From NCBI GenBank assembly GCA_033764955.1, contig JANRIL010000010.1:27754-91753 (forward strand): 64,000 nucleotides of DNA, given 5' to 3'. Positions 2,725 to 44,881 of this stretch are shown here, one piece after another (position 1 is the stretch's first letter; each line of letters starts with the position of its first letter). Under the pieces are notes generated by a model. It saw only the letters and a program-made list of their open reading frames with translations, did not search any database and was not told the origin of the DNA. The DNA is from Cyanobacteriota bacterium. GTDB taxonomy: Bacteria; Cyanobacteriota; Cyanobacteriia; Thermostichales; Thermostichaceae. The position numbers and the translations under genes were made by a program.

Positions 2725-3513
2725 TCAGTAGTTGATCTGGAGGGTGACTCTCGCGGAAATGCGCTGATCTCCGCCTATCACGGGAGTTGGCGCGTCGGAA
2801 CGAACCATATTGTAGGCTTCTACGGATTCTGGGCGCATCACAATCGGCGGGCTATCGCTGGCATCGACTTGAATGGTTTGAACGGACTGAATCGTCAAGT
2901 TGAGGACAGACAACACATCAGTAGCCTGGGTTTGGGCATCCTGAACCGCCGACTGGAGCGCCAGTTTTCGCCCAGCTTTGACTACACTTTCGGTGGCTTT
3001 GAAACTGACCGATTCCACTTGTGTGGCTCCTGCCGCAATCGCCTGATCCAAAATTTGACCCGCTTGATCAATGGGCACCTCAAACTGAACCGAGTTTTGC
3101 CCTTGCACCCCGATGGGTTTGGCTTGCCCATCTTTGTATTCATAGCGGGGGTTCAGGGAGATACCTGTGGTTTGTAGTGCTTGCACACGCAAATCCTTGA
3201 GTTTTTGCACTAACTCTCCCGACTGTTGCGCCACCTGCTGCTGCACCTGTTGCGCCGAAGTTCCATCGATCAAGACCCCTAGGCGCACCACCGCTATCGA
3301 AGTCTCCACCGCCACGGATCCCTGGCCCGTTACCGTCAAGAGACGGGGGGGATTATTTTCTGCTCCCACAACCGGATGACTCAACATAATGCTCCACCAC
3401 CCCAAACAACTGATCAACAAAACCAGCAGCCCAATCCACCCCCGCCACCCCTGTTGCGGGATCCGGAAGTGGTGGGTGGATATAGCCCCTAACCAAGGTT
3501 TTGGCAGTTTCAT
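2725..3513 (-). CDS. SIMPL / DUF541 periplasmic protein
   Basis: LTVTGQGSV, LQTTGISLNPRY, LD.AIAAGATQV.SVSF and GGDQRISARVTLQINY motifs. Confidence 0.9.
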   Translation of the reverse strand: MKLPKPWLGAISTHHFRIPQQGWRGWIGLLVLLISCLGWWSIMLSHPVVGAENNPPRLLTVTGQGSVAVETSIAVVRLGVLIDGTSAQQVQQQVAQQSGELVQKLKDLRVQALQTTGISLNPRYEYKDGQAKPIGVQGQNSVQFEVPIDQAGQILDQAIAAGATQVESVSFKATESVVKAGRKLALQSAVQDAQTQATDVLSVLNLTIQSVQTIQVDASDSPPIVMRPESVEAYNMVRSDAPTPVIGGDQRISARVTLQINY

Positions 3514-3682: not shown

Positions 3683-4609
3683 ATGACTGGGTTACGCTCG
3701 GTGACAATAGGGGAAGTTTTGTTGGATGTTTTTCCAGATGGTCAGGTGGTTTTGGGGGGAGCACCCTTTAACATTGCTTGGCATCTGCGGGGGTTTGAAC
3801 TGAATCCCCTCCTGATTACTCGGATTGGCCAGGATGCCTACGGTGACAAAATTTGGCACGCCCTCGAATCTTGGCATCTCGACACCCAAGGGATCCAAAT
3901 CGACCCAGACCACCCCACAGGCCGCGTCGAAGTCACCTTGCCAGCCGGACAGCCCCACTTCCACATTCCCCCCGATCAAGCCTTTGACTTTATTGAAGGA
4001 TCTTTGGCCTTAGCCGCCATCCAAGCTCACCCCTGCCGTTTGATCTACCACGGAACCCTTGCCACTCGCACCCTTGCCGCCCGTCAAACTCTTTTGGATC
4101 TGCATCAGGTTAGCCAACTGCCGCTGTTTCTGGATCTCAACCTACGGGATCCCTGGTGGGATCGAGATTGGCTCGATCAGGTGATGCAGACGGCCACCTG
4201 GGTAAAAATGACGGAAGCAGAGCTAGCCACCCTACGGGATCCCCACCCCCTCAGCCGCACCCAATTACCTCCGGCAGCCTGTCACCTCCACAGCCAGTAT
4301 GGTTATGCCTTTTTGGCCGTAACGATGGGAGAGGACGGAGCCATGCTGGTCCTTCCCGACCGACTGCTCAGCCAGACCGCTCCCGTGGTGGATCCCATCT
4401 GCGATACGGTGGGAGCGGGGGATGCTTTTAGTGCTGTGCTGATCCTAGGGATCCATGAGGAGTGGAGAGCGGATGTGATGGTGCAGCGAGCCATTCAGTT
4501 TGCCTCGGCCACCTGCCGTTATCCCGGAGGGACAATAGCGGATCGCGGGTTTTATCAACGGTTTTGGGATCAATGGCAAGCGGATGACGAAGATTCCCTG
4601 ACTTCCTAG
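3683..4609 (+). CDS. PfkB-family carbohydrate kinase (fructokinase-like)
   Basis: IGEVLLD, GGAPFNIA, DLNLR and DTVGAGDAF signatures. Confidence 0.9.
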   Translation: MTGLRSVTIGEVLLDVFPDGQVVLGGAPFNIAWHLRGFELNPLLITRIGQDAYGDKIWHALESWHLDTQGIQIDPDHPTGRVEVTLPAGQPHFHIPPDQAFDFIEGSLALAAIQAHPCRLIYHGTLATRTLAARQTLLDLHQVSQLPLFLDLNLRDPWWDRDWLDQVMQTATWVKMTEAELATLRDPHPLSRTQLPPAACHLHSQYGYAFLAVTMGEDGAMLVLPDRLLSQTAPVVDPICDTVGAGDAFSAVLILGIHEEWRADVMVQRAIQFASATCRYPGGTIADRGFYQRFWDQWQADDEDSLTS

Positions 4610-4624
4610 GATCGGTTATCTGTT

Positions 4625-4680
4625 CGATAACGACTCCGTTCCCCCGCCGCAGTGGTGTCGGGTACAAACGTTTATTGGGG
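4625..4680 (-). mobile_element. Degenerate attC-like site downstream of the DUF5946-like gene
   Basis: Minus strand CCCCAAT-AAA-CGTTTGTACCCGAC...GCGGGGGAACG-GAGTC-GTTATCG; imperfect hairpin of 56 bp starting 6 nt after the stop. Confidence 0.5.
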
Positions 4681-4686
4681 ACGTGA

Positions 4687-5193
4687 TTATGCGATATTGC
4701 ACTTCCTGACAAACCTCTGAACTACGTGATGATAAGCTGACCAAGCATTCCAAACATTTCTTGCCCATTGATCAACCAGTTTTTGATGCTCTGGAAAATC
4801 TCTTGCCTTGACAATATCTAACACTGTCATTCGCCCATTTGGGGCAGGCGGATCCAACCATACAAACTGGCTTGCATATTCTAGTAATCTACCAATAGCA
4901 TGGGTAGCTTCAGCGCCTTCAAGTCCTTTTTCAACCATAAGATATAGACTGATCAGGTGTGTATTGACTGACTGAATGGATTGACGTGAGGGTTTGCCGG
5001 GATGTTGAACAGCGTAAGTATCCACTGTCAACCGATGCACTGTTTCAGGGTAACCATATTTACCATATTCTTTAGCAAGAATTTCGCCATAGATTTCCCA
5101 GCAACCTGCACATGCACCAATGTACTTGTGTGGTTCTCCAGGAATATCTTTGACCCAAGCACCGCATCCATAACATTGGATTCGTTTAGTCAT
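4687..5193 (-). CDS. DUF5946-like protein (putative gene cassette)
   Basis: N-terminal CxGCG, YIGACAGCWEIY and HRLTVDTYAVQHPG; AT-rich codon usage. Confidence 0.75.
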   Translation of the reverse strand: MTKRIQCYGCGAWVKDIPGEPHKYIGACAGCWEIYGEILAKEYGKYGYPETVHRLTVDTYAVQHPGKPSRQSIQSVNTHLISLYLMVEKGLEGAEATHAIGRLLEYASQFVWLDPPAPNGRMTVLDIVKARDFPEHQKLVDQWARNVWNAWSAYHHVVQRFVRKCNIA

Positions 5194-5242
5194 TGGATTC
5201 GTGTAGTTATTGTGTCACTAAGTTTTATTGATTTGAGGAAAT

Positions 5243-5321
5243 TACTAACGCAGTGGCGGCAAGCAACCTTGGATTTGGCACCACTCACTCCCAACTGTCC
5301 GCTGCATTTGAATTGTTGGGC
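5243..5321 (-). mobile_element. attC-like site between the GNAT and DUF5946-like cassettes
   Basis: Minus strand R'' GCCCAAC, left arm CAAAT(G)CAGCGG(A)C, damaged right arm GCCGC, R' GTTAGTA. Confidence 0.65.
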
Positions 5322-5350
5322 GGATCGCTATCCACTTACCATTTCTAGAT

Positions 5351-5806
5351 TCAGAACTCACATCGCATCACAAGTTCACCGTTCTCTTCTTTTCCGGTGT
5401 AAACAAAACCCATCTTCTCGTAGAACGGACCGGGACCACCTTTGGCTGGCACACAACTTGTTTCAACCCCATGTGCTCCAGGGCGAGTCTTGACATGTGC
5501 CAAGAACAACTCCATCGCCTTTCGCCCATACCCACACCCCTGGTATTGCTCATCTATCATAAAGCGCCACAGAAAATACTCTTGTTGAGCTACGTTGTCT
5601 TCCAACATCAAAAAACCGACTGGCACATCACCTGCGTAGATTGCACGGAACCAAGCAACCTCTGGATTGAAATGCGCTTCTGCAATAGACATGGCGTTGG
5701 ATGCTACAAATTGCTCCTGATGCGGGGCTACCTTTAAGCGTAGGATATCACTCCAGTTTTCTTTAGTTATCTCGCGCAGCGTTACTTCGATGCCGGACTT
5801 GAACAT
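5351..5806 (-). CDS. GNAT N-acetyltransferase (spermidine/diamine acetyltransferase-like; putative gene cassette)
   Basis: QEQFVASNAMSIAEA, LWRFMIDEQYQGCGYGR (acetyl-CoA motif A), FYEKMGF; AAGGAGG RBS upstream. Confidence 0.9.
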   Translation of the reverse strand: MFKSGIEVTLREITKENWSDILRLKVAPHQEQFVASNAMSIAEAHFNPEVAWFRAIYAGDVPVGFLMLEDNVAQQEYFLWRFMIDEQYQGCGYGRKAMELFLAHVKTRPGAHGVETSCVPAKGGPGPFYEKMGFVYTGKEENGELVMRCEF

Positions 5807-5881
5807 ACCGAGTATCCTCCTTAAACAATGTCTTTTAAGGATAGTTTCTTATTCAGAAACACACCCCCCACCACATCTGCC

Positions 5882-5987
5882 GCCCAACGTTCCGGTTAAG
5901 CAGCTACTGAATACAGCTCTTTTGGTGATTATCAAGCACGGCTTTGCCCCTCTCTTTCATAGAAGACGGTTTAACAGTAAGTGGTGA
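5882..5987 (-). mobile_element. Degenerate attC-like site upstream of the GNAT cassette
   Basis: Minus-strand right arm GCTGCTTAACCG-GAAC-GTTGGGC (R' fits GTTRRRY); left arm only weakly complementary. Confidence 0.45.
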
Positions 5988-6101
5988 TTGGGATGATCCG
6001 TAGCGGATAATTCACGTGTAAATTTGGTACTACCATGGCTCTGTTGTCGTTCTAGTTGACGAGAATATTTGGCTGTCAAAACCTGAGCCAGATTCAAAAA
6101 A

Positions 6102-6413
6102 TTAGTCTAAATAAGCTCGTAATTCTGCTTCCAGAGTGGGCAACTCTACCTCACCCTGACTAAGCTCTTGCAGATCTTGTAGCTGGGCTTGTAGACGGGT
6201 AATGCGTTCTTGCAGATAACTCTTGATATTGTTAGCACCGAGAGCCACACAACTGCGGCAGGCTTCTCCATAGATCCGTCCCTGATCGTTGTAAATCACG
6301 GCAATCAAGGAGGGCTGCCCTCGCCCCCGTTGAGGATTCACCCAGCGTCCACAGATCAAGCAGGGAATGGGGCTGCTCCCGCCATAAATACTTTGTTCCC
6401 AAACAATTTTCAT
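6102..6413 (-). CDS. Hypothetical protein with CxxC...CxxC and C-terminal coiled coil
   Basis: CLIC and CRSC pairs; heptad LQERITRLQAQLQDLQEL. Confidence 0.75.
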   Translation of the reverse strand: MKIVWEQSIYGGSSPIPCLICGRWVNPQRGRGQPSLIAVIYNDQGRIYGEACRSCVALGANNIKSYLQERITRLQAQLQDLQELSQGEVELPTLEAELRAYLD

Positions 6414-6482
6414 GGGATCCCCCTCGTCTTGCCAACGGATTGATCACTGCTTGAGCCCGTGATGGTTAATCACCGGGATGCC

Positions 6483-6929
6483 TCAGTCTGCCATCTCAAA
6501 ATCGACAAAGTCAAACCCTGGCACCACCACACATCCCACCAGCGCATAGCCCTTCTCTCCCGGCAAAGCCTCCGCCGACTGCCACGCCAGAGCCGGCACA
6601 AGGGCTTGATAGCAGGGAGATTCCCCCAGGCAATAGGTCATCGGATCCTGATGATCGGGGCAGACTTTCAGTTGCAAGGGATCCCCAGCCTGATGGAGCC
6701 ACAATTCTTCGGAGCGCACGCGATGCCAGCGGGATTGACAACCTGTGGGCAAGAGAAACAAAATCAGCGTGCCAGCCGCACGGCTGCCGGAATAGCCTCC
6801 AGGTAGCGCCTCCGCCGCCAAGGTTAAGGAGGAGCGCCAGGTTTCGCGGTAGTAGCCTCCTTCAGGGTGGGGCTGCAAGTGGAGATCTTTAATCAGTTGC
6901 GTGACTGGCAGAGATAGCTGAGGCGACAT
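6483..6929 (-). CDS. Cupin, DUF985 family
   Basis: LQPHPEGGYYRET, SRWHRVRSEELWLH and LVGCVVVPGFDF motifs. Confidence 0.92.
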   Translation of the reverse strand: MSPQLSLPVTQLIKDLHLQPHPEGGYYRETWRSSLTLAAEALPGGYSGSRAAGTLILFLLPTGCQSRWHRVRSEELWLHQAGDPLQLKVCPDHQDPMTYCLGESPCYQALVPALAWQSAEALPGEKGYALVGCVVVPGFDFVDFEMAD

Positions 6930-9635: not shown

Positions 9636-10817
9636 ATGACCTTGGATTTTCGATTTGGCATTATCAGTGATCTGCATATTGCCCTCCCCCATACAGTCTG
9701 GGATCACCCCAGTCGTTTTCATTTAGTGGAGGTGAGTATTCCGGCGCTGGAGATTGTCTTAGCGGAATTAGCCGAGCTGGATCTGGATTTTCTCCTCTTA
9801 CCGGGGGATTTAACCCAGCACGGCGAACCGGATAACCATACGTGGCTGGCTGAACGGCTCCACCAACTGCCTTATCCTGTTTATGTTGTGCCGGGAAACC
9901 ACGATATTCCCTGTCTAAAAAATAATGGACATTCGATTGGAGTGAATGACTTTACCCATTATTATCAGCCCTTTGGTTATCAGGATCTCACCCAGCTCTA
10001 TTATACTTGTTCACTCCTTCCCCATGTGCGTTTGATTGGTCTCAATTCCAATCAATTTGATCCACAAGGTCGTCTGTTTGGCGGGCTGGATCAACAACAA
10101 CTTATCTGGCTAGAAAACGCTCTGCAAGAGGCATCAGAAGAACTAATTTTGGTGATGGTGCACCACAATGTTGTGGAGCATCTGCGCGGTCAATCTCAAC
10201 ATGGATGGGGTCGCCGCTATATGATTAAGAATGCTTCCGAGTTAATCCGAATTTTGCAGCGTTATGGTGTTCAACTGGTTTTTACGGGACATTTACATAT
10301 TCAAAATATTGCCTGCCGTAAGGGAGTTTATGATATTACCACGGGATCGTTGGTCAGCTATCCTCACCCCTATCGTATTTTGCGGGTGACGGGGGATCGG
10401 CATCATTCATCGGGGGCTTGGCAGATTCATATTCAATCTCGACGAGTGGAAGCTGTTGAGGAATGGCCGAATTTACAACATTTTTCCAGAGAGTGGATGG
10501 CCAATCGCAGTACCCCGCTGATGGAGCAGTTTTTAGCAGCGGATCCCCTCAATTTTTCGGGAGAACAGGCCAGAACTTTTGCCCCCCATTTGCGCTACTT
10601 GTGGGCAGACATTGCTGCTGGAGATGCCCATTTATGGTTCCCTGAATTTCCGCTGGCAGCCCGTCATTATCTCGAAAAAATGAATCGCTCCGTCAGTTGT
10701 GATCCCGATATTCCGATTACTTCCGATAATCAAACGACTTTATCCCTACAGCCCCGCTCCACAAAAGTTGGCTTGGCTAGCCCAGCGTTGTCGGCGAGTC
10801 CGCTGGCTCGTGAATAG
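9636..10817 (+). CDS. Calcineurin-like metallophosphoesterase (CpdA/Icc-like)
   Basis: SDLH, GDLT, PGNHD, HHN and TGHLH motifs. Confidence 0.9.
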   Translation: MTLDFRFGIISDLHIALPHTVWDHPSRFHLVEVSIPALEIVLAELAELDLDFLLLPGDLTQHGEPDNHTWLAERLHQLPYPVYVVPGNHDIPCLKNNGHSIGVNDFTHYYQPFGYQDLTQLYYTCSLLPHVRLIGLNSNQFDPQGRLFGGLDQQQLIWLENALQEASEELILVMVHHNVVEHLRGQSQHGWGRRYMIKNASELIRILQRYGVQLVFTGHLHIQNIACRKGVYDITTGSLVSYPHPYRILRVTGDRHHSSGAWQIHIQSRRVEAVEEWPNLQHFSREWMANRSTPLMEQFLAADPLNFSGEQARTFAPHLRYLWADIAAGDAHLWFPEFPLAARHYLEKMNRSVSCDPDIPITSDNQTTLSLQPRSTKVGLASPALSASPLARE

Positions 10818-13029
10818 GCCAGGGATCCCCTAAATCTGCGGTCAGAGGATCAACAGCTAACCCCCAGTCCTGGGCAATGGCTTGGGTGAGTCCCTGCTGG
10901 TTGCCACCGGGAAAACGAGCCAGCGCCAAGAGTAGGTTAAGCAGTTGGGGTGGGTGAGGGATCCGCCCGAAGATGTGCAGCCCATCGCGGATCTGAGCTT
11001 CCTTCAATTCGCAGAGATAGCCGTCGAGGGTGGGCAGCCATTCTGGGAAAGCGGTGGAACTAGCTGACGGCACGAGTTGTTCTTGCTCCACTAGCTCCTG
11101 AATCTGACTTTGGATCAAGCGGGCGCGACTGGGATCCAATCCTTGAGACTGAGCATATTCATCCAGCAGGTTTTCCAGGCGCAGCAGCGATCCATAGAGA
11201 TGGGCACGGCGGAGGGGAGGAGTTAGATGATCCAAAATCACCGCCTGGGCACGGCGCTTCGCCTGAGATCCCTCCCCCGGATCGTTGACGATGAAGGGAT
11301 AGAAATGGGGGAGAGGACCAAGGGCAATTTCTGGAAAACAATCCTCAGAGAGGGCGATGCTTTTACCGGGCAGCCATTCCAGATTGCCATGTTTGCCTAC
11401 ATGCACCACCGCATCCACCCCCATCACCTGCCGCAGCCAAACATAAAAGGCCAGATAAGTGTGGGTAGGTACTAAATCAGGAGCGTGATAGCTGAGGCTA
11501 GGATCTTGATCATAGCCACGGGAGGGTTGCAGCCCCACAAACACCTGTCCATAGCTGATGCCGGGAATGGGGATAGGTTGGTCGGGGGGATCCCCCCATT
11601 GCTGCTGGATGGCCGTCTGGATGGCCGGGGAAAGTGTTGTCCAAAAATCTTGATAAATAGCGGGAGCGAGGGCTTGCCGAATGGGTCGATAGTCTCGTCC
11701 TATTGGATCAAGGGTGACACCACTAGTCAGATGGGTGATCAACTGATCGCTGCTGTTGGGAATATCCTTCACCCCATAACCCGCCCGCTGCATAGCCTGC
11801 AAAAGCTCCACACAACTAGCCGGAGTATCTAGCCCCACTCCATTGGCGATCCGTCCATCACGGCAGGGATAGTTGGCAAGCACCAGCGCCACCCGGCGTT
11901 CTGCCACAGACTTGCGGCGCAATCTCACCCAATGCCCAGCTAGATCCGCCACAAACTCCACCCGATCCACCTGGGGCTGATAGACAACCACATCCGTTTG
12001 CAGGTGAGGATCCCCCACTTGAATAGATTTGAAGGAAATAGCCCGTGTCATGACTCGCCCATCCACTTCCGGCAACACAACATTCATGGCGAGATCACGG
12101 GATCCCAACCCTTGCGGAGATTCCTGCCATTGCTCATAGGATCCCCCACTCAAAACAACCTGCAAAACCGGAACATCGAGGGCTTGCCAAAGACTCAAAT
12201 CAACAGTTTCCTGATCCAAACGGGCTAAGGAAAAACTTGTGGTGATCAATAAAACATCGATTTTCCCCTGCCAAAAGGTCAGGGCTTGTCTCATCAAATC
12301 AGGTTCCTGCAATCCGTAGGTATAAAGGCAATGAGGACGGAGAGATCGCTCTCGCAAAGCCCGACAAAGGGCATCCATGGGAGCTATGTTTCCGGCTAAA
12401 AGATGAGCACGATAAAAAAGAATACCCACCCCCGGCCAATCGTGATCCACAGGTTGTTCATTTTCTTCTGAAATGGGCCTATCTTGATAAACGCCCACCC
12501 GTGGCAACACCTGTATAGGCTGGAGGGGATAGTCCGTCTTCAGGGCACAATTGGCAAAAGCTTTTAATCCTTGCTCTATATTATTGACCCCTCCTTCTAA
12601 AAAGTATTGCCAAATTTGATGAACAGCCCTCATCCCAATAGTAGAATGACTGATTAGATCCCAATCTGGTTGATCATCTCCCGGTAAAACTATCAACAGA
12701 GATCCATTTTCCTGAACCATTTGTTTGACGGTTTCTAACCCATAGCTCCAATAGGATTTCCCTCCCAATAAACGAATCAGGATCCCTTGGGCTGAGCTTA
12801 AAACGGTTTGGACATAGGCATCAATCGATATATTTTGTTGCAAATGCAAGAGATTGGTCACTCTCACCTCAGGAAAATGGCTGGGCAACTGGGGTTGAAC
12901 CTGCGCTAGCGTTTGAATATCCGTATCGGCTGCCGTCAAAATTACCAACGGTGCGGGATCCTGCTCTACAAAAATCACCCCTGTCGCTGAGGGATCCCAT
13001 CCGCCGGGACGGGCACTGATCCGGTGCAT
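10777..13029 (-). CDS. cobN: Cobaltochelatase CobN, N-terminal portion only (split or truncated)
   Basis: MHRISARPGGW start, RDLAMNVVLPEVDGR, HVGKHGNLEWLPGK, NDPGEGSQAKRR and LKEAQIRDGLHIFG; ends at about 750 aa. Confidence 0.9.
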   Translation of the reverse strand: MHRISARPGGWDPSATGVIFVEQDPAPLVILTAADTDIQTLAQVQPQLPSHFPEVRVTNLLHLQQNISIDAYVQTVLSSAQGILIRLLGGKSYWSYGLETVKQMVQENGSLLIVLPGDDQPDWDLISHSTIGMRAVHQIWQYFLEGGVNNIEQGLKAFANCALKTDYPLQPIQVLPRVGVYQDRPISEENEQPVDHDWPGVGILFYRAHLLAGNIAPMDALCRALRERSLRPHCLYTYGLQEPDLMRQALTFWQGKIDVLLITTSFSLARLDQETVDLSLWQALDVPVLQVVLSGGSYEQWQESPQGLGSRDLAMNVVLPEVDGRVMTRAISFKSIQVGDPHLQTDVVVYQPQVDRVEFVADLAGHWVRLRRKSVAERRVALVLANYPCRDGRIANGVGLDTPASCVELLQAMQRAGYGVKDIPNSSDQLITHLTSGVTLDPIGRDYRPIRQALAPAIYQDFWTTLSPAIQTAIQQQWGDPPDQPIPIPGISYGQVFVGLQPSRGYDQDPSLSYHAPDLVPTHTYLAFYVWLRQVMGVDAVVHVGKHGNLEWLPGKSIALSEDCFPEIALGPLPHFYPFIVNDPGEGSQAKRRAQAVILDHLTPPLRRAHLYGSLLRLENLLDEYAQSQGLDPSRARLIQSQIQELVEQEQLVPSASSTAFPEWLPTLDGYLCELKEAQIRDGLHIFGRIPHPPQLLNLLLALARFPGGNQQGLTQAIAQDWGLAVDPLTADLGDPWPIHEPADSPTTLG

Positions 13030-13297
13030 AAAGAACTCCAAGCTGATGGTGATCTGGCCTCTATCACCTTTGGTTGTAGCCTAGCCACTATTGGTAATGA
13101 TGTCAAAATGGATAGAATCTGTGTCGGCAAGTTTAATGACAACAGGTTCTATTTGTATAGGGGTAGAGGTGCGGGTATTTTTGACTGCACTCATCACTGT
13201 GTTTACAATATGAATGAATGCCATTTGGGATAGGTTGGTCACTAGCCCATGGCAGCCTTTTTGATTTACAGATAAGCCACCTAGGGAACAAGAAATT

Positions 13298-13738
13298 ATG
13301 ACTCAATCACTCTACGACCACGACATTCTTTTATGGGTTGAAGATACGGTTTCCAAGCTCAAAACCAGGGATTTTGATAGCTTAGATCTAGAAAATTTAA
13401 TTGAGGAGGTGGAATCTTTGGGGCGATCTGAAAAAAGGGAACTTCTTAGCCGCTTGACGATCCTCATTGAACATCTCATCAAAAGACTTTACGTTTCAAT
13501 GCCAGAGAACTATCGCGGCTGGGAAACTACAATTCGCAATCAACGAACAGAGCTAGGCTTTTTGTTGAAAGATGCACCTAGCCTGAAAGCCTTTTGGGGA
13601 GAGAGTTTTGCTTTAGCTCTTGCTACTGCTCTCAAAAATCTGTGTAAAGAATATCCCCAAGTCAATTTCCCTCAAGACTGGATCTATACCAATGATCTAG
13701 ATTTGATTTTGACTATTGATTTTTGGGAGGTGAAGTAA
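13298..13738 (+). CDS. DUF29 family protein
   Basis: LYDHDILLW, LDLENLIEEVESLGRSEKR, W..TIRNQR and PSLK. Confidence 0.92.
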   Translation: MTQSLYDHDILLWVEDTVSKLKTRDFDSLDLENLIEEVESLGRSEKRELLSRLTILIEHLIKRLYVSMPENYRGWETTIRNQRTELGFLLKDAPSLKAFWGESFALALATALKNLCKEYPQVNFPQDWIYTNDLDLILTIDFWEVK

Positions 13739-13827
13739 TGATTCAATCGATCTACGACCACGACATTCTTTTGTGGATTGAAGATACGGTTTCCAAGCTC
13801 AAGACTAGGGATTTTGATAGTTTATAG
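13738..13827 (+). pseudogene. Truncated tandem DUF29 paralog (29 codons)
   Basis: Near-identical to the 5' end of the 13298 gene (MIQSIYDHDILLWIEDTVSKLKTRDFDSL*); its ATG overlaps the upstream stop. Confidence 0.85.
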
Positions 13828-13916
13828 TCGTTCCAATTTAGTTTGAGAACCCCAAAATCTCTCAAAGCTTGGATATCAAGATTTAGGTGGTCGCATTCTT
13901 ATTTGGAATGACTATA
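13823..13916. mobile_element. MITE with about 26-bp imperfect terminal inverted repeats, TA-flanked
   Basis: Left end TATAGTCGTTCCAATTTAG; reverse complement of right end TATAGTCATTCCAAATAAG; no ORF. Confidence 0.75.
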
Positions 13917-13996
13917 GTTCCCGATTGTGGCTTGGATCGAGTTGCCCAATACGTGGTTTTTAGGTGGTCTGTCTAGATTTTCCTTTTCGGCAAGAG

Positions 13997-14347
13997 CTAC
14001 CCTTGTCGGGGAAAAATAGATTCATATTGCTGCAAAAATGGCTCGATTCGCTGCACCAATAAAAACAACGGCTGTTGCATTTGTTGCTGACCCTGGGGAG
14101 ACGAACGCCAGTAAGCCACCAATCCCCGTCGCACCTGGCTACTGACACTTTGCAACCGGCGGCGGCAGGCATCCAGACGAGTGCAGGATTTTTGTAACCG
14201 ACGCACCATCAACTGATCGCGGTTGGCGGCTAATTGCTCCTGCTGGCGGGCATTGATCTCCGCTAACCAGGTTTCGATAGCTTCCAGACGAGCCACCTGG
14301 GATCCCAGGTAGTTGACCAACCCCAATAGATCAGGAGAGTCCATCAT
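13997..14347 (-). CDS. Hypothetical coiled-coil protein
   Basis: Helical ORF overlapping the stop of the upstream gene. Confidence 0.55.
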   Translation of the reverse strand: MMDSPDLLGLVNYLGSQVARLEAIETWLAEINARQQEQLAANRDQLMVRRLQKSCTRLDACRRRLQSVSSQVRRGLVAYWRSSPQGQQQMQQPLFLLVQRIEPFLQQYESIFPRQG

Positions 14348-18555: not shown

Positions 18556-19869
18556 TTAGGGCACGGACAAAAACAAGAAAAGGGATTGCTCTAGATCGCC
18601 CACAGTCGCCCACACATCTTCTGCCATCTGAGATGGAGATGGCAACCCAGCCGCCGGCGGCGAGGAAGATGCTAGCTGTTTGGCGTGTTCTAACAAGTCA
18701 TGCAAAGTCATAGGCTGCTCTAATAAAGGAGCCAATGTTTTGACCATTGGGGCGGCAATCGTCAGTCTTCCCTGGGGTGAATTCGCCCAATTCATGCCAA
18801 AGTCACTGTTGGCTTGTGCCACCTGTTGCCAGTTATTTCGGAAATCCGGTCGCTCACTGAGAATGGGGTTAAATTGCAGCTTTCCCTGTTGCCAATCCTT
18901 CTCTTGCCAAATCCGGTCGGCAGGTCTATTGGAGGGGTGATCCGCCCATAAATCGATGAGGCGATGTGTGGGAGAAATTAGCTCAAACAGGTGCAGTCTT
19001 TGTTCGTAGCTAAGGGTAGTGAGTGCTTTTTGAACAAATTCTGGCATCGATTGAAATTGTGTGACGGGATCCCAACTCCGATAGTCTACGAGGTTGACAA
19101 AATTCAGTCCGGCAGCCTCCACCATCTGAACAATATCGGGAATACGATAGCCGCGATCATTGACCAATAAATAATTATTCAAAACATCAATATCTTCTTT
19201 GTAATTATTAGGATCCCAGCCTAAAGCTGCTTTAGTTTGGGGAGAGTGGAGAGCCTCCAAAAAATGGCGAATATTCTCCACTGCTTGAGGGCGAGGGATC
19301 TGAGTTTGTCCTAATTTTTGAAAAACTTGCTGCATTCGATACATGTGTTGACGTTGATAGATATTATGAAAATTGGCACGAATTACTCCTTCTGGTTTGA
19401 GCACCTTACGCATAGCAATCAGAGCCTCAACCGGTTCACTGATTAGGGACATGACATCACTGATGCCAATAAAGTCAAATTGAATATCTAAGCTCCCTAA
19501 ATCTAGTAAATCTAGCTGAAAAATCTCAATGTCATAATAGCCATGATAACGCAGTCGTTGCTCTGCTACTTTGACCGAATTAGGTGACAAATCAAAGGCA
19601 AAAATCTTGGCTCCAGGGTTGGAGGCTGCCATCAAAAGTGTTTGCCACCCTGATCCACAGCCTGCATTTAATAAAACCTTTCCCTCCGGAGAGTTAATCT
19701 GATGAGTTCGATAATAGTGAGCCGTTGTATAATTCATCTTAAATAGTGAATTAACAGCGGTTGTGGGAGGTGTGGAGAGGGGTAAATTGGGATAGGGAAG
19801 CTCTTCATATAACTCAAAAGAGTTTTGTGAGCCTGAACGCACCGAAGGTAAAAAGCTAAGCATAGGCAT
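18556..19869 (-). CDS. Class I SAM-dependent methyltransferase
   Basis: YEELPYP, LNAGCGSG, DLSPNSV and LKPEGVI; AT-rich. Confidence 0.88.
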   Translation of the reverse strand: MPMLSFLPSVRSGSQNSFELYEELPYPNLPLSTPPTTAVNSLFKMNYTTAHYYRTHQINSPEGKVLLNAGCGSGWQTLLMAASNPGAKIFAFDLSPNSVKVAEQRLRYHGYYDIEIFQLDLLDLGSLDIQFDFIGISDVMSLISEPVEALIAMRKVLKPEGVIRANFHNIYQRQHMYRMQQVFQKLGQTQIPRPQAVENIRHFLEALHSPQTKAALGWDPNNYKEDIDVLNNYLLVNDRGYRIPDIVQMVEAAGLNFVNLVDYRSWDPVTQFQSMPEFVQKALTTLSYEQRLHLFELISPTHRLIDLWADHPSNRPADRIWQEKDWQQGKLQFNPILSERPDFRNNWQQVAQANSDFGMNWANSPQGRLTIAAPMVKTLAPLLEQPMTLHDLLEHAKQLASSSPPAAGLPSPSQMAEDVWATVGDLEQSLFLFLSVP

Positions 19870-19999
19870 AAGTCATGATTAGAGAAAGGCAATTCAAAAA
19901 CAACCAAGAGCTAGCAGAGAAAAAGCAGTCAGCGAATCACCCAAAAGTTTAATCTTGTCTAGCTAAAATCATTAAAAAACTAGGCAACTGATCGGCTGA

Positions 20000-22900
20000 T
20001 TAGCTAAGTATATGCAATCGGGATCCCTGGGGAGAACGTTCCACCTCAATGCGATGGGGAAAGGCATCCCGCAGGCTGGGAATGTGGGTGATCACCAAGA
20101 TACAGGCAAAATCGCTGGATACGGCATTGATGGCCGCCACCAACTGTTGCCGCCCCGTTTGATCTTGGGTGCCAAAACCTTCATCAATCAGCAGGGTTTG
20201 CAGGCTGGCTCCTGAACGTTGCGCCAGCAGACGGGAGAGAGCGAGTCGAATCGCAAAGTTGATGCGGAAGGCTTCCCCCCCCGAATAGGTCTCATAAGGG
20301 CGGGTGCCTTGCGGGTCGGCAATCAGAATATCGAGGGTATCGATCAACTTGCTGGAACGGCGACCTGAGCGTTGGGTGACAAATTGCAGATGCAGTTGAT
20401 GGGCGGTCAGGCGGGAGAGAATCTGATTGGCGGTGGTTTCCAGCTCCGGTAATACATTTTCGATGATCAGAGCCGGGATCCCATTGCGCCCATAGGCATT
20501 AGCCAGTTCTTGGTAGATCAGTTGGTTGCGTTTGGCCTGTTGCAGGGATTGGTTGAGTTGAGCCTTTTGTTGAGCCAGGTGGGCGCTTTGCTCCAGTCGT
20601 TCTTGGATCCCACCCAGTTGAGAAAGCAGGAGATCCTGCTGCTGCCGCCGCTGTTGAATGATGGTCGCTAATCCTTTCAGTTGCCCCTCGGTAACAACCG
20701 GAGATTGCGCCAGTTGGTGATGCACCTGCTCAAGCTGCTGGTTGGTCTGGTGAAAGCGGCGGCGCTGTTGTTGCAGCATTTCCGCCAGATCGCTACAGCA
20801 CTCCTGGTAGGCGGGCCATTGTTGTTTGGCCTGTTGCAGTTTTTCCCATTGGTGCATCCAGCCCTGTTGCTGGGTGAGTTCGGCGCGAACCGCTTGGTGC
20901 TGAGCCACGTCATAGCTGAGGGTTTGCAATTGCGCCTCCAGATGGCGTAGGGATCCCGTGCTATCTCCCTGCGAGGGGGCGGTTTGCAGATACCGGATTT
21001 GCGCGTGCAGATGGGCTATCTCCTGATTAAGGGATCCCTGCCGTTCTTGGGCTTTTTGCAGGTCTGCCTGTTTGGTGAGTGCCCAGCGCCACCGTTCCAT
21101 CTCGGCACGACAGAGGGCATGATCTTTGTCGTTGTAGCCCAGTTGGGTTAGTTGCTGGTGCAGGTGGTGCAGGCGTTGGCGAATCTCTGCCCCAAAGGTT
21201 TCTTGCTGGAGGCTGGTGGCAATGCTGTGCAGTTGGGTTTGCCAGCTATGCAGTTGTTGCAGCCGTTGTTGCCCCGATTCCAGTTGGTGTTGCAGGCGTC
21301 CTTGATGGTGAAATTGCTCATCCAACTGCTGTAACTCGGCGGTGAGGGCTTGATATTCCCGTTGCAAAATTTCGATCTCCCGATCCGCCACCGCCAACTG
21401 TTCCCGAATCACAAACAACTGGCCTTCCAGATCTTTTTGCTCCTCCTGGTGTTTGTCGATGACCAAATGCCGCAAATCGGGGGTGAGGGGTTGGGTACAA
21501 AGGGGGCAGCTATGGAGCACCACGAGATCCCCAGCTTCTGCCCCAGGTACAGGGATCCCGATCCAGTGGCGTTTCTCCTCAAATAACTGCCATTGCCGTT
21601 GTAGGGTGCGCTGGCGTTCTTGCAGTTGGTGGACAAATTTTTGCCGTTCTTGAATTTTTTCCTGCACCCGTTGGTGATAGACCCGCCGCTTTTCCGCATC
21701 TGCTAGTTCCCCTTGCAGCGTTACCACCGCCTGCTGTACCTGCTGTACCTGTGCTTGCTGACTTTGCAGGTGCTGCACCTGCTGCTGGAGAAGCTGGTGT
21801 TGGGCTTGCAGTTGGTTCCGTTCCTGTTGCAGTTGGGCTTGGGTGGCTTGCCATTGTTGCCAGAGGGGGGTGGCCTCCGCCTGCTGTTGGTCGTAGCGGT
21901 TGAGGGCGGCTTGGGCTTGCCGATAGGCGGTGAGGGCGGCGGTGATCCGCTCCGCTTCCTGCAAAATTTGGGCATCCGCTTGGGCTTGCGCCTGCAAGGT
22001 CGCCAGTTGGTGTTGTCGCTGTTGCAACTGCTGGAGGCGTTGGTGTTGCTGCTCCCTCAGCTCGTCTTGCAGGCGTTGCCGCTCCTGTTGCAGGCTTTGG
22101 TGCTGTTGAAATTGCTGGTTAAGTTGTTGGTCAGCGGTCAGCAGCGCTTGATAGCGGCGACAGCCATTGAGGATCGTTTCCTCCTGCGCCAAGAGGGTTT
22201 CCAGTTCCTGCTGTTGCTGGTGCTGTTGCCGCCACTGGGTTTCGGTGGTTTTGAGGGTTGTCGCCAGATTGTGCAGTTGCTCCGTCAGTTGTTGGTAGTG
22301 CTGTTGCAGGCTCTGTCGCCGGGTCATTTGGGTTTGCAGGTCTTCAAGATTGGCCTGATCCGCCGCCTGCTGCTCGATCCACTCCCTCTGCTGTTGGTGC
22401 AAGCGATCCGCTTCTGCCTGAAGCTGCACCCTATCCTGCTCTTGACCCGCTAGCCGTTGCAGTTGTTCGTGGAGAGAATCCGCTTGCAGGCGGGCGGAAC
22501 GAGAGAACTCTCGACTTTTTTCGGCCCACTGTTCATAAACCCCCAGTTTGAGAATCTCGGCTAAAATCTGCTTGCGCTCCCCTGGTCGTTTCAGGGTAAA
22601 TTCGTCGGCTCGCCCCTGCCGCAAATAGGCTGAGTTGATAAAAGTTTCATAGTCTAACCGAAGCTGAGCTTGAATCGCCTGCTGCGTGGCACGGATCCCT
22701 TTGCGGGTCAGGGATCGCCAGCCAGAGGAGGTCTCGATTTGCCACTCCAGCGTCCCGGCGGATCCCAGGCTGCGGCTGCGGAGAATGCGATAAACCTGTG
22801 CTTGGGCACGATAGACCACCTCCACCTGCGCCTCTTTACAGCCTTTATGGATCAGATCATCGTCAGAAGGAGCACGACTTTGCCCCCAAATTCCCCAGGT

Positions 22901-42127: not shown

Positions 42128-43654
42128 ATGAAGTTAGCTTATTGGATGTATGCCGGCCCCGCTCATATTGGCACATTGCGTGTCGCCAGTTCCTTCAAGA
42201 ATGTCCATAGCATTATGCACGCTCCTTTGGGAGATGACTATTTTAATGTGATGCGTTCGATGCTAGAGCGGGATCGCAACTTTACTCCCGTAACCACGAG
42301 TGTTGTGGATCGGCATGTTTTAGCGCGGGGATCCGATGAAAAGGTTGTTAACAATATCACCCGTAAAGATAGTGAGGAACATCCTGATTTGATCGTTTTA
42401 ACCCCAACCTGCACCTCCAGTATTCTGCAAGAAGACCTCAATCATTTTGTGCAGCAAGCCCAGATGATTAGCCATGCTGATGTCATGCTTGCTGATGTTA
42501 ATCACTATCGAGTCAACGAATTGCAGGCTGCGGATCGTACCCTTCGACAAATTGTGCAATTCTACCTTCAAAAAGCTCGTAAATCGGGATCCCTAGTGAC
42601 GGAGAAAACAGCGGAGCCTTCTTGTAATATCATAGGAACCTCCACTCTAGGATTTCACAATGCCCATGATTTAAGAGAACTGCGGGTATTGATGCAAGAC
42701 TTAGGGATCCGAATCAACCTCGAAATCCCTGAGGGAGCCTATGTCAATGATCTCAAAAAACTAGGGCAAGCCTGGTTTAATGTGGTTCCCTATCGAGAGT
42801 TAGGGCCATTGGCAGCAGAATATTTGCAGGCAGAACTGGGCACTCCCTTCATTGATATCACCCCGATGGGAGTGGTAGAAACCGCGCGATTTATTCGCAA
42901 GATCCAAGAAATCCTCAACGCTCAGGGATCCCCTGTCAACTATGAGGCTTATATTGAGAACCAAACCCTCTATGTTTCTCAAGCCGCATGGTTTTCTCGC
43001 TCGATTGACTGCCAAAATTTGACCGGTAAAAAGGCAGTTGTGTTTGGAGATTCTACTCATGCGGCAGCGATCACTAAAATTCTCTCCCGTGAAATGGGTA
43101 TTCATGTTGTTTGGGCGGGTAGCTACTGCACCTATGATCAGGAATGGTTTACCGAACAGGTGGGTCGTTATTGCGATGAAATTTTGATGACGGACGACCA
43201 CACCAAAGTGGGAGATGCTATTGCTAAGGTTGAACCCGCTGCTATTTTTGGAACCCAAATGGAGCGGCACGTGGGCAAACGCTTAAAAACTCCCTGCGGT
43301 GTGATTTCGGCTCCCATTCATATTCAAGATTTTCCGATTGGCTATAAACCCTTTTTGGGCTACGAAGGAACGAATCAAATTGCCGATTTGGTTTACAACT
43401 CCTTTACGCTGGGGATGGAAGATCACCTCCTAGAAATCTTTGGCGGGCATGATACGGCTGAAATTATGACCAAGTCCTTGACGGCTGACTCTGACCTAGC
43501 GTGGGATGGCGAAGCCATGCAAGAACTAAAGAAAGTACCTGGATTTGTCCGCAATAAAGTTAAGAAAAACACCGAAAAATTTGCTCGTGAACGGGGGTTT
43601 TCCGGCGTTACTTTGGAAGTTATGTACGCCGCGAAGGAGGCTGCTGGAGCCTAA
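42128..43654 (+). CDS. chlB: Light-independent protochlorophyllide reductase subunit B
   Basis: [26 protein letters not shown] and C-terminal PCP_red domain VPGFVR. Confidence 0.98.
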
Positions 43655-44047: not shown

Positions 44048-44881
44048 ATGGCGATGCAGTGGCAGACCGTAAAAACCTACGACGACATTATTTATGAACG
44101 GTGGGATGGCATCGCTAAGCTAACCATCAACCGCCCCCACAAACGCAATGCTTTTCGTCCCCAAACCATCCAAGAATTGCTAGATGCCTTTCACCACACC
44201 CGTGAGGATCCCGATATCGGCGTGGTTTTGTTGACAGGAGCAGGTCCCCACCGTGACGGCAAATACGCCTTCTGCGCGGGAGGGGATCAAAGCATTCGGG
44301 GGGAAGCAGGCTATCTGGATGCCCAAGGGATCCCCCGCCTGAACGTTCTGGATTTACAAAAAGTTATTCGCTCGCTCCCCAAAGTCGTGATTGCCCTGGT
44401 CGCTGGTTATGCCATTGGCGGGGGGCATGTCTTGCACTTGGTCTGCGATCTGACCATTGCCGCCGATAATGCCATCTTTGGACAAACAGGACCGAAGGTG
44501 GGCAGTTTTGACGGCGGATTTGGAGCCAGTTACCTAGCGCGCATCGTTGGCCAAAAAAAAGCCCGTGAAATTTGGTTTCTCTGTCGGCAATACAACGCCC
44601 AACAAGCCCTTGAGATGGGGTTGGTCAATCACGTCGTGCCCGTTGAACAACTGGAGGCGGAAGGGATCCAATGGGCACAAGAGATTTTGCAAAAAAGCCC
44701 TCTGGCAATTCGCATCCTTAAATCAGCCTTTAATGCGGACTGTGACGGCCAAGCAGGATTGCAGGAGCTAGCGGGTAACGCCACCCTCCTCTACTATATG
44801 ACCGCCGAAGCCGCCGAAGGCAAACGAGCCTTTCTGGAAAAAGGATCCCCTGACTTTCGCCAATTTCCCTGGCTACCCTAA
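44048..44881 (+). CDS. menB: 1,4-dihydroxy-2-naphthoyl-CoA synthase
   Basis: [27 protein letters not shown] and FPWLP terminus. Confidence 0.97.

Follow-up and report, generated by a model that had tools for sequence, protein, structure and literature searches.

The window analysed here is a stretch of 64,000 nucleotides (nt) of contig JANRIL010000010.1 (C18), from a cyanobacterium of the family Thermostichaceae (assembly GCA_033764955.1). Near its start lies an island of low guanine-plus-cytosine (GC) content with two minus-strand genes, encoding a GNAT acetyltransferase and a DUF5946 protein, each followed by a candidate attC, the recombination site of integron cassettes. We consider this island (positions 4611-6101) to be a decayed fragment of an integron cassette array, short and without an integrase, that belongs to the resident integron system, and we give this reading a probability of about 80%. 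It is carried by a genome-wide family of attC sites, by integron integrases elsewhere in the genome, by cassette boundaries that fall at G|TT crossover points, and by a foreign base composition. Formally, the locus falls short of a clean cluster of attC sites lacking an integron integrase (CALIN): it is either a degenerate one or a single-attC locus (SALIN), and a SALIN if only significant matches are counted.

The integron system of this organism is defined by its integrases and the arrays next to them. Two full-length integron integrases were found with TIGR02249 (cut-off 265 bits), at C9:16-1116(-) with 462.5 bits and at C38:63588-64529(+) with 451 bits, while none of the 14 control genomes has an integron integrase above the cut-off. 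They belong to two complete, sedentary chromosomal integrons (C9:16-8480 and C38:53282-64529), in which intI (366 and 351 amino acids (aa), respectively) is divergent from a co-oriented array of 7-8 attC sites in C9 and 5-6 in C38, the intact sites scoring 60-98 bits. The motif GGGATCCC occurs at similar densities on C9 (1.24 per kb), C38 (1.26) and C18 (1.45), which indicates that the integrons belong to the same organism as the window. The host genome gives 10 matches to phycobilisome families; among the control genomes, only Synechococcus elongatus has any. In all, there are nine TIGR02249 matches genome-wide and none on C18, in agreement with the original prediction of no intI in the window; the locus is not a complete integron, as intI is missing from C18 (no search for attI was made). 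Some further observations concern the same genome. Fragments of intI are seen at C36:180-860, C4:4-123, C30:655-831 and C38:182627-182934. The cargo of the C9 integron, as read from translations, includes toxin-antitoxin-like pairs together with genes that resemble a short-chain dehydrogenase and a methyltransferase. Contig C25 (16984 nt) is the sole contig without GGGATCCC, where 22 copies are expected, and may be foreign, episomal or mis-binned.

The DNA that follows the GNAT gene matched short sequences a few kilobases (kb) from both integrases, in the orientation that cassette arrays would be expected to have. A fuzzy search returned 14 copies of the conserved arm, and the eight full-length copies, none of them from the window, were aligned. 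The alignment is that of a textbook attC: a 4-bp R box (TAAC/GTTA) is set off by a 2-nt unpaired spacer from a 7-bp L helix, beyond which a bulged G and a bulged A enclose 6 bp and are followed by more pairs and a variable loop. In the arm cited by the original prediction, the G and A marked as bulged are the two unpaired positions of this consensus. A covariance model (R1) was built from the eight copies and a second one (R2) from 41 further R1 matches, with the window excluded from both. In the 41-site alignment, which was fitted to the model so that structure is somewhat favoured, 83.5% of cells are paired (30-49% in slid controls), and 139 cells are double changes against 48 in shuffles, none of 500 shuffles being as high. 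R2 also detects attC arrays in contigs of Lysobacteraceae and Gammaproteobacteria metagenome-assembled genomes (MAGs), and therefore recognises attC in general rather than just a private repeat.

Across the whole genome, R2 gives 86 matches at E<=1 and 75 at E<1e-3, so that the related sites anticipated elsewhere in the genome exist in number, including arrays beside the two integrases. When grouped by a 4-kb rule, the 75 sites fall into 46 loci, of which 32 are singletons and 14 are clusters whose members all point the same way. About 6 singletons are no more than 5 kb from the end of a contig and may be parts of broken arrays. Integron integrases above the cut-off occur in 10 of the 23 genomes of the family, and R2 matches in 16 of the 23 (15 of the 22 relatives), counted among the best 150 candidates, a selection that, like the model, favours this genome (G000).

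Within the 64 kb, searched with filters off, the attC of the GNAT cassette (site A; Table 1) is the single significant match of both models, and its E-value with R2 remains 4.4e-7 when the whole genome is searched. The original prediction had named a search with an attC model among its checks, and this match (42 bits) answers it. Site A starts 27 nt past the GNAT stop codon, and its 5' arm is near consensus with both bulges in place. The terminal triplets of an attC are present as well, AAC in R'' and GTT in R'. The full set of structural hallmarks, all of which the family consensus has (a paired L box with extrahelical bases, an unpaired central spacer and a variable terminal structure of 20-100 nt), is not found, since the 3' L arm of site A is deleted: an 8-column gap lies in this L' arm, and the alignment marks each of the seven L-box pairs as broken. 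The runner-up R2 match in the window (44595-44650(+), 56 nt, with CCCAAC...CGTTGAA ends, 12.7 bits) is non-significant at E 0.92.

The limits of the GNAT cassette were obtained by comparison with a genome of the same family and a different genus (G013), which matches only 5251-5887 of the island. There, attC sites of 72.5 and 82.6 bits flank the GNAT unit and belong to a longer series that shares one orientation. Identity between the two genomes begins at TTGGGCGG, right after the G of the upstream R', and ends at the L' arm; outside the G|TT points (5888|5887 on the upstream side) the flanks diverge. As the G|TT crossover is the very point at which homology begins, the GNAT cassette runs from 5887 to 5249, a discrete unit with G|TT bounds that is found in different contexts. 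The downstream attC of G013 (82.6 bits) is intact and carries 8 nt that are absent from site A. The GNAT gene of G013 (in G013:C66:150-3788) is split into two open reading frames (ORFs; 94 and 53 aa) beside this intact attC, a pattern of decay opposite to that in the window. As for the gene in the window, its ATG is preceded by AGGAGG (a ribosome-binding site), and the nearest solved structures to its product are spermine/spermidine acetyltransferases (2fl4 and 9dsb, E 1e-12).

This comparison also clarifies an exact 9-nt complement (5315-5323 and 5880-5888) to which the original prediction had drawn attention. The complement is present, yet it is one of six exact 9-nt inverted repeats in 2.1 kb. 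It had been taken to mark the two ends of the GNAT unit; 5323-5315 is instead the R'' of the unit's own attC, and the cassette ends at G5249. The two halves of the complement are thus what remains of R' where the cassette begins and the R'' that belongs to the cassette's attC, and a circularised GNAT cassette would restore this 9-nt pairing exactly.

Table 1. Coordinates of the island, its genes, cassettes and attC-related sites in the window
Feature	Positions	Strand	Details
Low-GC island	4611-6101	(-)	between pfkB stop (4609) and stop of the conserved 103-aa gene (6102)
pfkB-family kinase gene	3683-4609	(+)	flank of island
103-aa gene	6102-6413	(-)	flank of island
Dispersed repeat, ~105 nt	5912-6016	(-)	lies where the 5' half of the upstream attC is expected
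Site C, candidate 3' half (L'-R') of upstream attC	5880-5910	(-)	R' GTTGGGC 5888-5882; crossover G5888|T5887
GNAT cassette, 639 nt	5249-5887	(-)	86% identity to G013:C66:1650-2288 over window 5251-5887
GNAT acetyltransferase gene, 151 aa, intact	5351-5806	(-)	PF00583, E 4e-11
Site A, attC of GNAT cassette	5241-5323	(-)	R1 41.5 bits; R2 42.0 bits, E 7.5e-9; R'' 5321-5315 (...CCCAAC); R' GTTAGTA 5249-5243; crossover G5249|T5248
Inferred DUF5946 cassette	4631-5248	(-)	TT of preceding R' to G of own R', from R2 alignments
DUF5946 gene, 168 aa	4687-5193	(-)	PF19371, E 6.4e-36; N-terminal CxxC...CxxC
Site B, probable decayed attC	4623-4682	(-)	R' GTTATCG 4631-4625; putative crossover G4631|T4630

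The second unit carries the DUF5946 gene, and the Pfam assignments of both genes agree with the co-oriented minus-strand pair that had been predicted. The DUF5946 protein was found in none of the 22 other family genomes, and the best 80 relatives include no cyanobacterial record; the top three are from Chloroflexota MAGs (80, 73 and 70% aa identity). Neither gene is thus syntenic in relatives, the GNAT unit being located inside an attC array of another genus. The best DUF5946 relative (L066, Chloroflexi MAG contig JAKBYW010000120.1) shows 84.8% DNA identity over 499 nt, confined to the ORF. Directly 3' of its DUF5946 gene is an attC (3012-3077, 21.3 bits, E 5e-5 in a local search), and the contig has further co-oriented attC sites of 39.2 and 20.8 bits. 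The GC content of this cassette is 44% beside a region of 57-59%, which suggests that the DUF5946 cassette is foreign to both hosts. A 17-nt tandem duplication (5174-5207, 94% identical) spans the start codon of the gene in the window and results in two in-frame ATGs.

Site B, as placed by R2, is 60 nt long, begins 5 nt past the DUF5946 stop codon and ends with GTTATCG; its end boxes, AAT/AAAC and GTTATCG, are off consensus. It is probably, with real room for doubt, an eroded attC. The principal alternative is that only the GNAT unit is an integron cassette (a SALIN), while the DUF5946 gene arrived by another horizontal route and the stretch behind it is plain intergenic or terminator sequence that resembles attC by chance. 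This would explain why site B does not fold as an attC and was not returned by the R2 search of the whole window, as well as why, with default filters, a strong attC directly follows the gene in only 2 of 80 DUF5946 loci (L108 and L119, E 2e-9 and 1e-6; a third locus, L115, has a weak match at E 0.95). Several observations speak against it: the best R2 placement is on the right strand, 5 nt past the stop, and ends in GTTAT like the R' of the family; site B aligns to the attC of L066 with a score of 25, where shuffles give 9.8 +/- 4.2 and 12 of 2000 reach 25; the R' of the preceding attC borders directly on the DUF5946 unit, just as it would in an array; and the composition is uniform across 4611-6101. 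We therefore regard this alternative as unlikely.

Upstream of the GNAT cassette, site C shares 12 consecutive nt with one attC of the C38 array, at the L'-R' end of that attC, and it aligns column for column with the upstream attC of G013. A 5'-truncated R2 match (model positions 31-91, at 5880-5925) gives 7 bits and E 0.03 in 54 nt. The 5' half was not seen: a 5'-half nhmmer profile, run genome-wide, matches only site A in the window. With moderate confidence, site C can be considered a truncated attC. In place of the 5' half stands the dispersed repeat, of which there are copies at C20:15935-16040 (81%) and C38:184402-184507 (79%) and a partial one at C29:1737-1790, and none in the 22 other family genomes. 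Ends that resemble terminal inverted repeats are seen in the C20 and C38 copies, and the element looks like a miniature inverted-repeat transposable element. It was also considered as a variant of attC and rejected: the three-copy consensus fold is weak with one compensatory pair, one copy is intergenic outside integrons, and there is no R2 site in it.

The base composition of the island is that of the cassette arrays of this genome. Over its ~1.49 kb, the GC content is 45.4% (genome, 51.5%), and across ~4650-6250 it is 42-46% against 55-59% in the flanks, in line with the AT-rich genes of the original prediction. The island lacks GGGATCCC, of which 1.9 copies are expected there; the 3.8-Mb genome has 4915. 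Eight cassette arrays of the genome (39.6 kb in total) have GC contents of 43-50% and hold 2 copies of GGGATCCC against 51 expected. Because low GC and GGGATCCC depletion match these arrays, the composition was counted for an array origin. By itself, the absence of GGGATCCC between 4236 and 6414, which had also been noticed before, is real yet at chance level, as 239 of 4868 gaps in the genome are at least as long (2178 nt).

Several points weigh against the array reading. R1 and R2 are home-made from the genome's own sites, with a shortened calibration, and their E-values are rough. Of the three sites originally proposed, site A is significant by the attC covariance model, while sites B and C remain below threshold, each with about 7 bits that become significant only in tiny search spaces: site B reaches 7.1 bits and E 0.052 in 103 nt in a local R2 search, with 5 of its 7 L-box pairs broken, and a 3'-half nhmmer profile run genome-wide recovers site C (5910-5882) only at E 64. 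The stretches behind the two genes, folded as single-stranded DNA, give no attC-like hairpin (z +0.36/-0.17 after GNAT and +0.83/+0.62 after DUF5946). The assembly is in 48 contigs with 89% completeness, and the locus and the integrases are on separate contigs. The assignment to Chloroflexota depends on short MAG contigs, which may be mis-binned. Finally, no empty site was available for comparison: there is no same-genus genome among 30 relatives, the flanking genes are non-syntenic in the family, and the best relative in a metagenome scan with pfkB was 46% identical.

Two further claims of the original prediction did not stand. Hairpins had been described after both genes, and neither stretch folds in an attC-like manner. 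Ends of the type RYYYAAC...GTTRRRY had been reported, and no strict pair 40-130 nt apart was found on the minus strand of the island, while the whole window has 5 per strand. Taken alone, the raw observations (the 9-nt complement, the GGGATCCC gap, the motif pairs and the folds) are each weak or absent and thus make a weak case. The label CALIN is borderline: cassettes without a nearby intI are found, and only one attC is significant where the definition needs at least two. With one significant site and two sub-threshold remnants, the locus is a singleton by the 4-kb rule at E<1e-3.

The same damage bears on whether the cassettes can still move. In an active, mobilisable CALIN, the genome's IntI would still excise and reinsert the cassettes. 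There are two apparently intact integrases in the genome, site A has an R'' that is still perfectly complementary over 9 nt to the R' at 5888-5880, and the GNAT ORF is intact. Against these stand the lost 3' L arm of site A with 7 of 7 L-box pairs broken, the missing 5' half of site C and the near unrecognisable state of site B; as single-stranded DNA, none of the three sites forms the canonical hairpin or exceeds shuffles in folding energy, in contrast to the intact members of the family, which fold canonically. An active CALIN is very improbable, and since the sites no longer fold canonically and all three are damaged, the unit is probably immobile. The term "decaying" in the original prediction was apt. 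Least probable is a generic horizontally acquired islet without integron history, in which the attC-like match would be due to chance or to an unrelated repeat: taken alone, neither the 9-nt complement nor the GGGATCCC gap exceeds what chance gives, but a window-free model finds site A significant genome-wide, the same attC family flanks integron integrases, and the orthologous unit lies in an attC array with bounds at G|TT. The match at site A and the orthologous unit effectively refute this explanation.

Read along the minus strand, the proposed array piece would begin with a leftover segment in which the dispersed repeat is followed by a terminal 3' half of an attC. Next would come the GNAT (spermidine-acetyltransferase-like) cassette, whose attC has lost 8 nt of one L arm, and then by the DUF5946 cassette from 5248 to 4631, whose attC would have drifted until it was nearly unrecognisable. 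The cassettes were presumably delivered by an integron integrase acting in trans. They may have arrived when an attC recombined with a genomic site outside the att class, or they may be what is left of an earlier array after erosion or rearrangement; the half of an attC that seems to precede GNAT gives the array fragment a slight advantage over the non-att insertion. Because the cassettes are co-oriented with the 103-aa gene and directly downstream of it, read-through from this gene is predicted to be the likely source of any cassette expression. To judge from the sequence, the cassettes are now probably fixed in place.

The surroundings of the island were also inspected. The 103-aa gene is conserved in the family (at least 13 genomes match), and it is separated from the next gene by 4-45 nt in two relatives versus 1492 nt here, a difference that counts in favour of the array reading. 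A promoter and terminator scan of 4400-6600 gave 3 promoter-like sites (3.2 expected) and 0 terminators, and an Rfam scan of 4300-6500 (E<=10) gave only U7 and SNORD65 at chance level, Rfam being without an attC family. About 21 nt separate the end of the DUF5946 cassette from the convergent pfkB stop. A perfect 6-bp hairpin at 4615-4631 (GTTATC, 5-nt loop, GATAAC) is 6 nt away from the stop of pfkB. It shares positions with the putative final R' and could be a shared terminator stem or a piece of the insertion target. A 16-nt imperfect inverted repeat (4643-4658 and 6247-6262) was rejected as a boundary of the island, as it is estimated to be near chance and one arm lies inside the conserved 103-aa gene. 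In one DNA sequencing run (0.07 share of words), a single 233-nt contig covers 5578-5810, and no RNA run turned up. Other low-GC patches (40-46%) are found in the window at 42128-43654, 12251-14000, 9751-10500 and 18751-20000; one covers a chlB-like gene (PF00148 and PF08369), and another a DUF29 gene (13298-13738) beside a CobN/Mg-chelatase ORF whose match to the profile stops after 626 of its 1090 positions.

Published work already covers integrons in Cyanobacteria, CALINs and isolated attC sites (Cury et al. 2016, PMC4889954; Loot et al., bioRxiv 10.1101/2022.09.11.507474). The former defines CALINs by at least two detectable attC sites without an integron integrase, states that about half of them are in genomes that encode IntI elsewhere, and includes erosion and rearrangement of arrays among their proposed origins (options ii-iv). 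Set beside that description, the locus in the window is like a CALIN in its co-oriented promoterless cassettes, with no intI nearby and IntI elsewhere in the genome, and unlike one in having a single significant attC, the others being a sub-threshold remnant and a 3' half. The recombination of attC with a non-att genomic site (attG) has been demonstrated experimentally by Loot et al. With a SALIN as outlined there, the locus shares an isolated cassette with one recognisable attC, away from attI and intI and at the 3' end of a host gene, from which read-through could drive its expression, and the 32 singletons among the 46 attC loci of this genome are a further likeness. It is unlike the insertion of a single cassette into attG, because the segment upstream of GNAT resembles the 3' half of an attC and not plain genomic sequence; the attG motif given there, GWT...CRGM, was not convincingly seen at the junctions when the sequence was read by eye.

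Compared with the integrons on C9 and C38, the locus shares the attC family, the low GC content, the depletion of GGGATCCC and the small accessory cargo, and differs in being without an adjacent intI and without intact attC sites. In the classical literature on class 1 integrons, cassettes have been fixed outside integrons at secondary sites with incomplete recombination sites. The locus resembles such cassettes, a likeness with no experimental link between them.

The locus itself is an ordinary product of a known system, yet it is a clean example of how cassettes become fixed accessory genes: the bounds of one cassette are known to the base, its three sites show three stages of attC erosion, and the orthologue of its GNAT cassette is in a live array of another genus. 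The genome context matters more, with its two intact integrases and its 75 attC sites in 46 loci, as well as the same attC family in 15 of 22 relatives; this would make the family a useful natural system for studying how often cassettes leave their arrays and land elsewhere. The DUF5946 cassette, 85% identical at the DNA level to the copy in a Chloroflexota MAG and compositionally foreign in both, suggests a cassette pool across phyla. It is possible, though the odds are somewhat against it, that the cyanobacterium's own integrases have scattered cassettes over the chromosome, the 46 loci (32 of them single) being a natural counterpart of the recombination of attC with attG, and that the cassette pool is shared across phyla. 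If so, the locus would be an old, eroded product of this scattering, with the GNAT and DUF5946 genes domesticated under read-through from the 103-aa gene.

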